From assembly GCA_963815455.1 (NCBI GenBank), contig CAWFGO010000003.1, positions 160,001-224,000 of the forward strand: 64,000 nucleotides of DNA, in the 5' to 3' direction. The notes under the pieces were generated by a model that worked only from the letters and a program-made list of their open reading frames with translations, did not search any database and was not told the origin of the DNA. Below are positions 9,648-12,600 of the stretch, one piece after another. The position numbers and the translations under genes are program-made. Each line of letters starts with the position of its first letter. Position 1 is the first letter of the stretch. The DNA is from an uncultured Verrucomicrobiae bacterium. Lineage in GTDB: Bacteria; Verrucomicrobiota; Verrucomicrobiia; Chthoniobacterales; UBA10450.

Positions 9648-12600
9648 ATGCCGGCCGATCCTCATCCTCTGGAGACGCTCCTGCGCGAGCGCATTGTCGT
9701 GCTCGACGGAGCCATGGGCACGACCCTCCAGAGCCATAACCTTTCGGAAGCGGACTATCGCGGGAATCGTTTTCGCGATCGAAAAGGCAAGGACCTCAAG
9801 GGCAGTCTGGAACTATTGCAGCTGACCCAGCCGGCGCTTGTCGAGGAGATTCATACCAAATACCTCGAGGCCGGCGCCGATATCATCGAAACCAATACTT
9901 TTAGCGCCACGACGATTGGGCTCCATGATTTTTTGTTTTCCGGAGAACCGCGCGGCGGGCGCAAGGACCAGGAGTTTTTTCAACGCGTGGTGGACGATGT
10001 CGATCTTCGTGCGCTCACCCAAGAGATGAACGTTGAAGCGGTACGGATCGCGCGACGCGCGGCCGATCGGGTGGCAAATGCAACCGGGCAACGCCATTTT
10101 GTTGCCGGAGCGATGGGTCCCCTGCCCGTCACCGGCTCTATCTCTCCCGATGTCGGCGATCCGGCCTTTCGGGCGGTTTCGTTCGATCAACTTCGCGCGA
10201 CCTATTTCGATCAAGCGACGGCGTTGCTCGAAGGCGATGTCGATCTCCTCGTCGTGGAAACCGTTTTCGACACCTTGAATGCAAAAGCCGCGCTTTTCGC
10301 GATCGCTGACGCCGGCGAAAAAATCGGCAGGCGGGTTCCGCTGCTGATCTCTGGAACGGTCACCGACAAGTCCGGTCGCACTTTGAGCGGGCAAACCGTG
10401 GAAGCGTTCCTCATTTCCATCGCGCATGCGCAGCCGCTCATCATAGGTTTGAATTGCGCGCTCGGGCCCGATGAGATGGAGCCGTTCATCGAAGAGTTGG
10501 CGCGAATCTCGCCCTACTTCACCAGCGCGTATCCGAATGCAGGGTTGCCCGATCCGCTATCGCCCACCGGTTTTCCCGAAACTCCGCAAACGTTTTCGCC
10601 AAAAGTTGCCAGGTGGGCGCAGAACGGCTGGCTCAATCTGGTCGGCGGTTGTTGCGGGACGACGCCGGAACACATCAGGGTGTTGGCAAACGCGGTGCGC
10701 GATCTTCCTCCAAGACACGTGGAATCGCACAGTCAGGGGAGCGCACGCGCCTCGCGTGCCGATTTCCGCGCCCCCGCCGAAACCGCGAACGTCCAATATT
10801 CGAAGCGTTGGCTGCCTCACTTCGAGCGTCCCTGGGGCAAATACGCAGTGGCGTTTTCAACACATGAACGCCGTCAACTATCGAGTGGCGAAAGAGACAT
10901 CGTCTTGAATAGCATCCTATACGCTCACGAACATCGACAAATCGAGCTCTACGCGGCCTGCGTAATGCCCGATCACGCTCACCTGCTTTTTGAGCCGCAG
11001 GTGAAAAGCCAGGATGCGAAAGGAGCCCCCGCTTTCTGGTCGTTAACGGAAATTCTTCACGGCATCAAGTCATCGACAGCTCACAAGATCAACAAAGCCG
11101 CTGGAACGCGAGGTCCGGTCTGGGAGAAAGAATCGTTCGATCGGTTGATTCGATCGGAATCGGACCTGCACGAGAAATTTCAGTATATTTGTCGAAATCC
11201 CTGGGATTCGGGCGTTGCTGAACAGGGTGAGGAGTATCCGTGGTTATGGACGCAGGAAGAATCTTCGGCGAGGGCGCCGAAGATGGCACGCGAGGCGCGT
11301 GCGCTCCCCAGCGAAGAAGATCGCGCTCCCGAGGTACTACAGCTCTCCGGCCTGGAGCCGCTCAACATTACGCCGGAGTTCGGCTTCGTCATCATTGGCG
11401 AACGAACCAACATCACCGGCTCGCCGAAATTTTCGAAACTCATTCTGGGAGGCGACTTCGACGGCGCGCTCGTGGTCGCGCGTCAGCAAGTGCAAGGCGG
11501 GGCCAACCTGCTCGACGTCAATATGGACGAAGGGATGATCGATTCGGAAGCGGCCATGACCCGTTTTCTGAATTTGATCGGGAGTGAACCCGATATTTCC
11601 CGGATTCCGATTATGATCGACAGCTCGAAGTGGAGCGTGATCGAAGCGGGTCTCAAATGTCTGCAAGGCAAACCAGTCGTTAATTCCATTAGCTTGAAAA
11701 ACGGCGAAGAGGAATTTCTCCGTCAGGCGCGGCTGGTAAGACGATACGGCGCGGCTGTTATCGTGATGGCGTTCGACGAACAAGGCCAGGCCGACAATTT
11801 GCAGCGCAAGATCGACATCTGTGCGCGGGCCTACCACCTCCTGATCGAGCGAGCCGGCTTTTCCGCGACCGATATTATCTTCGATCCAAACATTCTCACG
11901 GTCGCCACCGGTCTGGACGAACATCGTAATTATGCGCTCGATTTCATTGAAGCGACGCGCTGGATCAAAGAGAACCTTCCCGGCGCGCGCGTCAGCGGCG
12001 GTGTGAGCAATATTTCGTTTTCATTCCGCGGCAACAACACCGTGCGCGAGGCGATGCACGCCGCTTTTCTGTTTCATGCTATTCGCGCCGGACTCGACAT
12101 GGCGATTGTGAATGCGGGTCAGCTTGCCGTTTACGAAGAGATCGAACCCGAGCTGCGCGAACGGGTCGAAGATGTGCTGCTCAATCGCCGCGCCGATGCG
12201 ACCGAGCGGCTGGTCGAATTCGCGGAAAACGTGACAACAAAGGGCAAAGCGCCAGTCAAAGACGAAGCCTGGCGCGGTGAGTCTGTCGAAGAACGGCTGA
12301 AACACGCCCTGGTAAAAGGCATCGTGGATTACATCGACATCGATACCGAGGAGGCGCGCAAGAAAAGCAAGCGTCCACTCGACGTGATCGAAGGCCCGCT
12401 CATGGCCGGGATGAGCGTTGTGGGCGATCTTTTCGGTGCAGGCAAAATGTTTCTGCCCCAGGTGGTGAAGAGCGCGCGAGTGATGAAAAAGGCCGTGGCC
12501 TACTTAATGCCGTTCATGGAAGCGGAGAAATCCGCGGGCGCGAAACCGCAGGGTCGGATCGTGATGGCAACGGTGAAGGGCGACGTCCACGACATCGGCA

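Follow-up and report, generated by a model that had tools for sequence, protein, structure and literature searches.

The closest described relatives of the element reported here are REPtrons, in which a REP-associated tyrosine transposase (RAYT) lies between inverted repetitive extragenic palindromes (REPs). RAYTs have been described as extragenic, confined to one place and not self-transposing (10.1101/2021.07.10.451892). The Escherichia coli enzyme, TnpA-REP, is a monomer, whereas IS200/IS605 transposases are obligate dimers (PMC3479197), and it acts on REP-bearing single strands, cutting them at a CT located 5' or 3' of the REP and joining them again (PMC8266576). In-frame intragenic repeats are represented by the GTAG REPs of Opitutus terrae and the Rickettsia palindromic elements (RPEs; Di Nocera et al. 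2013, PMC3733652), while REP inserts are known within subclass 2.4 tnpA-REP genes, in a survey in which long RAYT fusions were seen and then discarded (PMC6006769). Here we analysed a 64,000-nt window from an uncultured soil bacterium of the Verrucomicrobiae (contig CAWFGO010000003.1, positions 160,001 to 224,000), in which metH, the gene for cobalamin-dependent methionine synthase, contains a RAYT domain bracketed by REP arms. We regard it as likely that this insert is a start-less REPtron, with the order REP-RAYT-inverted REP, that belongs to a Verrucomicrobiota clade and is produced within MetH as a domain that does not splice.

A RAYT domain in the homocysteine-to-pterin linker of MetH

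To place the insert within its host protein, we assigned the modules of MetH by profile searches. The PRK09490 profile matched with 1929.8 bits (cut-off 1497), and the four modules and the conserved motifs were all present (Table 1); LNCALG and GGCCGTT are the motifs with the Zn ligands. About 200 additional residues were located in the linker between the homocysteine-binding and pterin-binding domains. A sequence-only reading of this DNA had claimed that metH reads through without a stop and that the insert occupies this linker, and both the open frame at 9648-14159 and the Pfam boundaries bear it out. The G+C content at third codon positions was 0.57 in the insert, compared to 0.66 and 0.71 in metH on either side. 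This metH was the sole copy detected, and no match to MetE (PF01717) was found in the 90%-complete genome; the gene is therefore probably needed by its host.

The inserted protein belongs to the RAYTs. In hidden Markov model searches, the insert alone exceeded the cut-off of NCBIfam NF047646 (80.8 bits, cut-off 80), the score being 75.4 bits within the whole protein, and Pfam Y1_Tnp matched aa 398-486 (29.3 bits, cut-off 23), between S-methyl_trans and Pterin_bind. The motifs RWLPH, MPDHAH, KESFDR and YICRNP start at aa 387, 440, 494 and 513, respectively. The isolated insert was modelled by AlphaFold with 86 sequences at a predicted local distance difference test score (pLDDT) of 89, and its top Foldseek match in the PDB was E. 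coli TnpA-REP (4ER8, E 1.8e-8, template modelling score 0.66), with IS200/IS605 transposases ranking below it. These profiles, the fold and residues H443, H445 and Y513 uphold the intact-looking RAYT/Y1 domain of the earlier reading. The motifs DH[AV]H, WE and YI.RNP do not point to one particular subclass among the rows consulted in Table 1 of Quentin et al. 2018 (PMC6006769). That the domain has no start or stop of its own, as previously proposed, was also confirmed: in this metH, the stretch from the left arm to the core of the RAYT contains no in-frame ATG, GTG or TTG, and the only such codon in 10704-10820 is a GTG at 10719, within the host linker.

The inverted repeat around the domain (10736-10760 / 11285-11309) is perfect over exactly 25 bp and, when extended, covers 46 nt at 89%. 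The sequence-only reading was right about the 25 bp and about the translation of both arms, through which the frame is open, and overstated the extension at about 49 bp. A conserved TCYG stands directly outside both arms. Among 162 arms, the foot was GGAG in 97 and GTAG in 55. By the guide rule (PMC8266576), the foot would be expected to set the flanking dinucleotide; CT and CC prevailed after GGAG (43 and 33 of 97) and after GTAG (20 and 16 of 55) alike, so the dinucleotide does not reveal the cut site.

Two rival explanations were weighed. The first is a misassembly or sequencing error in which the two halves of a split metH were joined to a RAYT gene that is really separate. Apparent frameshifts elsewhere in the assembly (thrS) and the existence of split forms with a RAYT (L004, L033, L175) speak for it. 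Four DNA runs from one study contained only 0.04 of the words and at 80% likeness gave fragments of other organisms, with no piece spanning the stretch, and so carry no weight either way. Against it, 15 of 18 filled alleles at this site keep an open frame across the insert in assemblies made independently, and dozens of database proteins carry MetH and Y1_Tnp domains together. Since the same junction architecture recurs in many independent assemblies, a misassembly is very unlikely, and we give this explanation hardly any credence.

The second is removal of the cassette by RNA or protein splicing, which would leave a normal mature MetH and account for tolerance in essential genes; IStrons, which combine IS605-type elements with group I introns, offer a precedent (PMC4227781). 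Neither route found a match: no Rfam model was hit at E<=1 in 9000-15000, which speaks against an IStron or group I intron, and the MetH protein contained no intein/Hint Pfam match and no H-N-[C/S/T] junction motif. Moreover, nearly every copy preserves an open frame across the insert, a constraint that RNA splicing would not impose. We consider splicing highly improbable.

Table 1. Features of metH and its inserted elements, in positions of the window
Feature	Position	Strand	Remarks
metH, cobalamin-dependent methionine synthase	9648..14159	+	single open frame, 1503 aa, stop-free through the insert
Homocysteine-binding domain (S-methyl_trans), aa 17-350	9696..10697	+	Pfam; LNCALG and GGCCGTT motifs found
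Left REP arm, type A	10736..10781	+	GGAG foot 10738-10741; 7-bp hairpin 10743-10759; second hairpin decayed; translated
RAYT / TnpA-REP HUH-Y1 domain, aa 384-534	10797..11249	+	lacks its own start and stop codons
HUH metal-binding motif H443-A-H445	10974..10982	+	aligned with the HUH motif of 4ER8
Catalytic-type tyrosine motif Y513-ICRNP	11184..11201	+	class 2 signature Y---NP; aligned with 4ER8
Right REP arm, inverted	11264..11309	-	two intact hairpins; translated on +
Pterin (folate)-binding domain (Pterin_bind), aa 584-822	11397..12113	+	Pfam
Cap and B12-binding domains, aa 880-1060	12285..12827	+	Pfam; DVHDIG motif found
Bare type-B REP doublet without RAYT	13123..13273	+	47-nt arms; in frame in the B12-activation linker; overlooked in the sequence-only reading
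Activation domain, aa 1212-1484	13281..14099	+	Pfam

The bare type-B doublet marks a second site in metH (site B, the RAYT linker being site A), where relatives have other repeat types or a full RAYT cassette. Another repeat family, translated as VIPSEVEGSR...RDPSTALRSA, lies in frame in the same two linkers in L007, L008, L009 (an unpublished genome) and L016, indicating that these sites collect unrelated repeats. Elsewhere in the window, a single type-A REP arm was found on the - strand at about 5985-6008 (G000:C3:165971-166008), at the 5' end of an ffh-like open reading frame (ORF; 4614-5987).

Host genes and site occupancy across the family

To determine whether the insertion is particular to MetH, we searched 121 family genomes with the RAYT core. 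The search gave 109 matches in 71 genomes, of which 90 were fetched and typed, and hosts were assigned by BLASTP of the flanks against the ORFs of this genome. The tallies include three genomes flagged as unpublished (G003, G008, G015), on which alone no claim depends. The results showed that 75 of the 90 copies lie in genes (recG 39, alaS 15, metH site A 8, metH site B 5, carB 6, thrS 2) and that 15 are free-standing, 11 of these at one place in the pilM-to-secretin operon. A search among longer proteins gave 1350 matches among 1524 candidates, and the 120 matches listed were nearly all MetH, AlaRS, ThrRS or HrpB-type helicases by Pfam; some records are automatically named 'alanyl-tRNA synthetase/REP element-mobilizing transposase RayT'. 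A Pfam scan of 39 of 150 cluster representatives, selected by length, added further hosts, namely shikimate kinase, pyruvate formate lyase-like proteins, PriA, ValRS, Ham1, BirA, DnaK, PurH and methyltransferases. The named records of fusions are almost all from metagenome-assembled genomes of Verrucomicrobiota, many of them Chthoniobacterales. In-gene residence of the RAYT is a family-wide habit involving several host genes and sites, not a peculiarity of MetH. Some AlaRS and MetH proteins (P0001-P0013) scored about twice a single domain, pointing to two or more RAYT domains per protein, and one metH (G049:C11) has two RAYT matches in one frame.

The same genome also has RAYT-like domains in frame in recG, alaS and carB, and its three clade copies are 46-54% identical to the metH RAYT. 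The carB copy (G000:C1:1470602-1471362) belongs to a subtype further removed from the others (40% identity over 101 aa) and has GTAG-footed arms; it is located at approximately the site where relatives have the main clade. Nine further RAYT-like matches correspond to remnants or to short ORFs standing alone; within 500 bp of them, arms of types A and B are absent, and several are flanked by other, TGTAG-type repeats. A pattern scan of the genome for the searched types returned 120 arms and 42 doublets, eight of which lie within long ORFs: two in metH, one each in recG and carB, two in the DNA polymerase III alpha gene, one in an AcrB-type transporter gene and a doubtful one upstream of a probable start. 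Those in the polymerase and transporter genes are bare and in frame (G000:C2:503931, C2:506295, C1:261381; L206, L207). In thrS (L205, G000:C1:738440-738900), apparent frameshifts accompany an insert of about 70 codons where relatives have a RAYT, reflecting either assembly error or decay. A bare type-A doublet preceded by an ATG abuts the start of the next gene in the pilM-to-secretin operon (L204, G000:C1:634191-634560), near the place where 11 relatives have their free-standing RAYT.

To map occupancy at site A, we aligned 48 distinct metH alleles, a set enriched for filled ones, since the RAYT had served as the query that located many of the loci. A RAYT was present in 18 alleles (15 reading through and 3 split) and absent from 30, among which were short linkers, in-frame bare repeats and metH genes split at the linker. 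Several split genes show a stop and then a new ATG just before the pterin domain; with metH existing as two genes at this point in several relatives, the site-A linker tolerates complete scission and is a natural split point of MetH. In one allele (L027, genome G029) the split lies a little downstream of site A, and about 600 bp of unrelated, ORF-like sequence separates the halves. One filled allele labelled Nitrospirota (L175) is nested among Verrucomicrobiota alleles, owing to transfer or mis-binning.

On the host tree, the filled state requires 12 changes, at least five of them being forced by strong branches, which is close to the mean of 14.7 after shuffling. Grouping of all filled site-A alleles as one clade was rejected (p-AU 0.001, approximately unbiased test), and 2 of the 18 site-A RAYTs belong to a different, unrelated clade. 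A rival reading is that the RAYT has been domesticated for a MetH-linked host function, for instance to tether MetH to DNA or RNA that contains REPs, or to regulate it there. The recurrence at the same MetH site in many genomes would agree with such a role, as would intact catalytic residues under strong purifying selection (see below). However, the same clade occurs in unrelated enzymes, most relatives lack the cassette (at site A, G001, a genome of the same genus, shows a short repeat and nothing more), and the state changes often on the host tree. We therefore see only a slim chance of domestication.

Frame, selection, movement and repeat load

To examine how the cassettes join their hosts, we used 65 fused copies (81 of the 90 with paired arms, minus 3 carrying stops and 13 free). 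The left arm was in the RAYT frame in 65/65. The arm-to-arm span was 0, 1 and 2 modulo 3 in 35, 14 and 16 copies, respectively, so that a built-in cassette length of 0 modulo 3 was rejected and the exit frame must be completed by flanking bases or later indels. The sequence-only reading had argued that a 574-bp span, not being a multiple of 3, spoke for selection on the frame; this argument is weak, as all phases are seen in relatives, TCYG lies outside both arms, and the span would be informative only between the true cut sites.

In the 75 in-gene copies, H443 was conserved in 71, H445 in 75 and Y513 in 73, which is more than an open frame alone would be expected to retain. The ratio of nonsynonymous to synonymous substitution rates (dN/dS) of the core was 0.02-0.38 in 13 same-site pairs with a proportion of synonymous differences (pS) below 0.62, pairs near saturation being left out; these values were similar to or somewhat above those of the hosts. 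For this metH copy, which is saturated at synonymous sites against most site-A relatives, the two estimable comparisons gave 0.07 and 0.10. The RAYT domain is under purifying selection.

Next to these signs of constraint stand signs of exchange. In a quick tree of 92 cores, clades followed REP type more than host gene, and host labels changed 8 times for alaS, 6 for recG, 5 for metH site A, 3 for metH site B and once for carB. Core and host dS disagreed in opposite directions in two pairs (0.47 vs 1.2-1.3, and 1.23 vs 0.2), the outcome that exchange of cassettes at one site would predict. These data have to be set against the view that embedded RAYTs are immobile, with a few old insertions inherited vertically or with transferred host alleles and repeatedly lost, and only the REP doublets moving. 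RAYTs are indeed reported as non-jumping and vertically inherited (10.1101/2021.07.10.451892), the carB copies form one clade, and three changes on a tree can amount to one gain followed by several losses. On the other hand, host labels are scattered over the tree, different RAYT clades occupy one site, one clade occupies several sites, and core and host dS disagree. Immobility differs from the reading we favour only in the frequency of cassette movement, and we judge it unlikely.

To assess whether embedded enzymes act on their repeats, we grouped the 121 genomes by RAYT protein clade and then counted cognate REPs, subtracting two per cassette for its own arms. At least 10 type-B REPs were present in 11/12 genomes with the recG-embedded clade compared to 12/109 others, with the same direction within 7 genera. 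At least 10 type-A REPs were present in 5/8 genomes with an A-clade RAYT only in metH compared to 5/103, after exclusion of 10 genomes with free A copies. Because cognate REP load tracks the embedded clades, these counts suggest that fused RAYT enzymes are active and maintain their repeats, more clearly so for recG than for this metH copy.

On the favoured reading, a full MetH-RAYT polypeptide would be made and MetH would still work. The earlier proposal, in which a tolerant MetH linker expresses and shelters a RAYT without intein motifs, fits all tests run. In the mechanism we envisage, the RAYT would fold as a monomer within the linker, and the monomeric state of TnpA-REP makes it plausible that a tethered domain works. 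The cassette would borrow the promoter and start codon of its host and so be expressed constitutively. The embedded enzyme would bind GGAG-footed hairpins in single-stranded DNA, then cut and rejoin them, a reaction that would spread bare REP doublets and occasionally move or replace whole cassettes. Survival would be limited to insertions that hit a tolerant loop and keep the reading frame, and any stop or frameshift arising in the cassette would be purged because it would truncate the host.

Several observations weigh against this reading. At least 3 of the 75 in-gene copies stop shortly after the RAYT. In an AlphaFold model of MetH 1-864 (57 sequences), pLDDT was below 50 over most of aa 361-579, leaving the insert unresolved. 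Host and RAYT distances at site A correlate (Mantel rho 0.30, p 0.02), with close hosts sharing close RAYTs and near-identical hosts sharing nearest ones; this agrees with immobility and means that vertical descent with loss is part of the history. As for repeat load, type-A REPs were also raised in 3/6 genomes with only the B clade, many REPs occur without a fetched cognate RAYT in G096 (55 type-B copies), G062 and G079, and the p-values of the load comparison are overstated, since kinship links the genomes compared. Exact type-A matches number only 5 in this genome, two of them the cassette's own; given so few REPs and the decayed second hairpin of the left arm, this metH copy may be nearly idle.

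A further point on that side is that an in-frame GTG, TTG or ATG, which could act as an internal start, separates arm from core in 31/65 fused copies. It supports an alternative in which the gene is fused but the RAYT works as a free protein. Translation could begin internally close to the left arm, or proteases could cut the linkers encoded by the REPs, and the chief contribution of the fusion would then be transcription. The arm-encoded linkers are predicted to be disordered, MetH is naturally split here in relatives, so that two pieces would probably work, and free-standing members of the clade exist (15/90). Nevertheless, this metH lacks a candidate start after the arm, and an ATG occurs there in only 2/65 fused copies. 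The free copies examined mostly have an ATG upstream of the left arm, so that their REP is translated too. The alaS, recG and carB sites lie inside a Pfam domain, where cleavage would be expected to harm the host, and an internally started RAYT would still run into the C-terminal half of the host. Release of the RAYT is thus an improbable alternative to a RAYT retained as a domain of MetH.

Beyond this locus, we tentatively raise a broader interpretation, which we think possible although somewhat short of probable: the clade may be a lineage of HUH transposons that move themselves and normally live inside essential proteins, resembling an intein that never splices, with a tethered monomer lacking expression signals, in-frame REP doublets serving as landing pads, and resident cassettes being replaced at the same site. 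If so, protein loops would cycle between empty, bare-REP and RAYT-filled states, contradicting the view that RAYTs do not jump.

Comparison with known systems and significance

No description of in-frame RAYTs in housekeeping genes was found in the full-text papers searched, a set with few subscription papers and no supplements; Additional files 3-5 of PMC3733652 and Figure S1 of PMC6006769 could list such cases. A term search of 10.1101/119735 returned no mention of fusions. Our results suggest that surveys dropping long 'fusions' miss much of this RAYT clade. Embedded RAYTs would account for the oversized MetH, AlaRS, RecG, CarB and ThrRS genes of soil Verrucomicrobiota, and they mark protein loops that accept 200-residue insertions. 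Embedded copies bear on what RAYTs do for their hosts and on whether RAYTs move: because RAYT presence varies by genome at fixed sites, with the cognate REP load alongside, they provide a natural comparison for RAYT-driven REP spread.

With REPtrons, including E. coli TnpA-REP (4ER8), class 2 TnpA-Y1 (PMC6006769) and NF047646 members, the metH cassette shares the HUH and Y---NP core and the fold, as well as inverted REPs on both flanks, each consisting of a hairpin and a G[GT]AG foot, dispersed genomic doublets and clade-specific REP types. It differs in having no start or stop of its own, in the translation of both REPs and in residing inside essential genes at many loci; rather than a free-standing, single, vertically inherited locus, 75/90 copies are found in host genes at six sites.

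The GTAG REPs, the RPEs and the REP inserts of subclass 2.4 tnpA-REP genes share with it palindromic repeats translated in loops of housekeeping proteins, Verrucomicrobia included, and the metH doublet at 13123-13273 is exactly of this kind. They comprise 20-80 aa of repeat only, and none with a transposase is reported in the sections consulted, whereas the metH cassette carries a transposase as well. TIRtrons (TIRYT; Di Nocera et al. 2013, PMC3733652) likewise place a Y1 transposase between long terminal inverted repeats (TIRs) starting with GGGG, and some of these TIRs are double-palindromic or overlap a gene. However, the arm start of the metH cassette, GGGGAGCG, breaks the GGGGWSAS consensus at position 7, the insert gave no match to the C-terminal helix-turn-helix of TIRtrons and subclass 2.1, and TIRtrons are described there as separate genes. 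An IS200/IS605 identity (Y---Q, near-identical multicopy elements, often with tnpB) was rejected, the motif here being Y---NP and the three clade copies in the genome being 46-54% identical to this one.

Inteins with homing endonucleases are mobile nucleases that reside inside conserved genes at recurring sites. The metH cassette shares with inteins and IStrons (for the latter, PMC4227781) a mobile nuclease cargo sheltered in conserved genes. It differs from both in that no splicing machinery was found, the host apparently keeps its passenger, and an HUH enzyme acting on single strands serves as the nuclease. Mobile nucleases can hide in essential genes by splicing of RNA or of protein; existence as a tolerated domain would be a third route.

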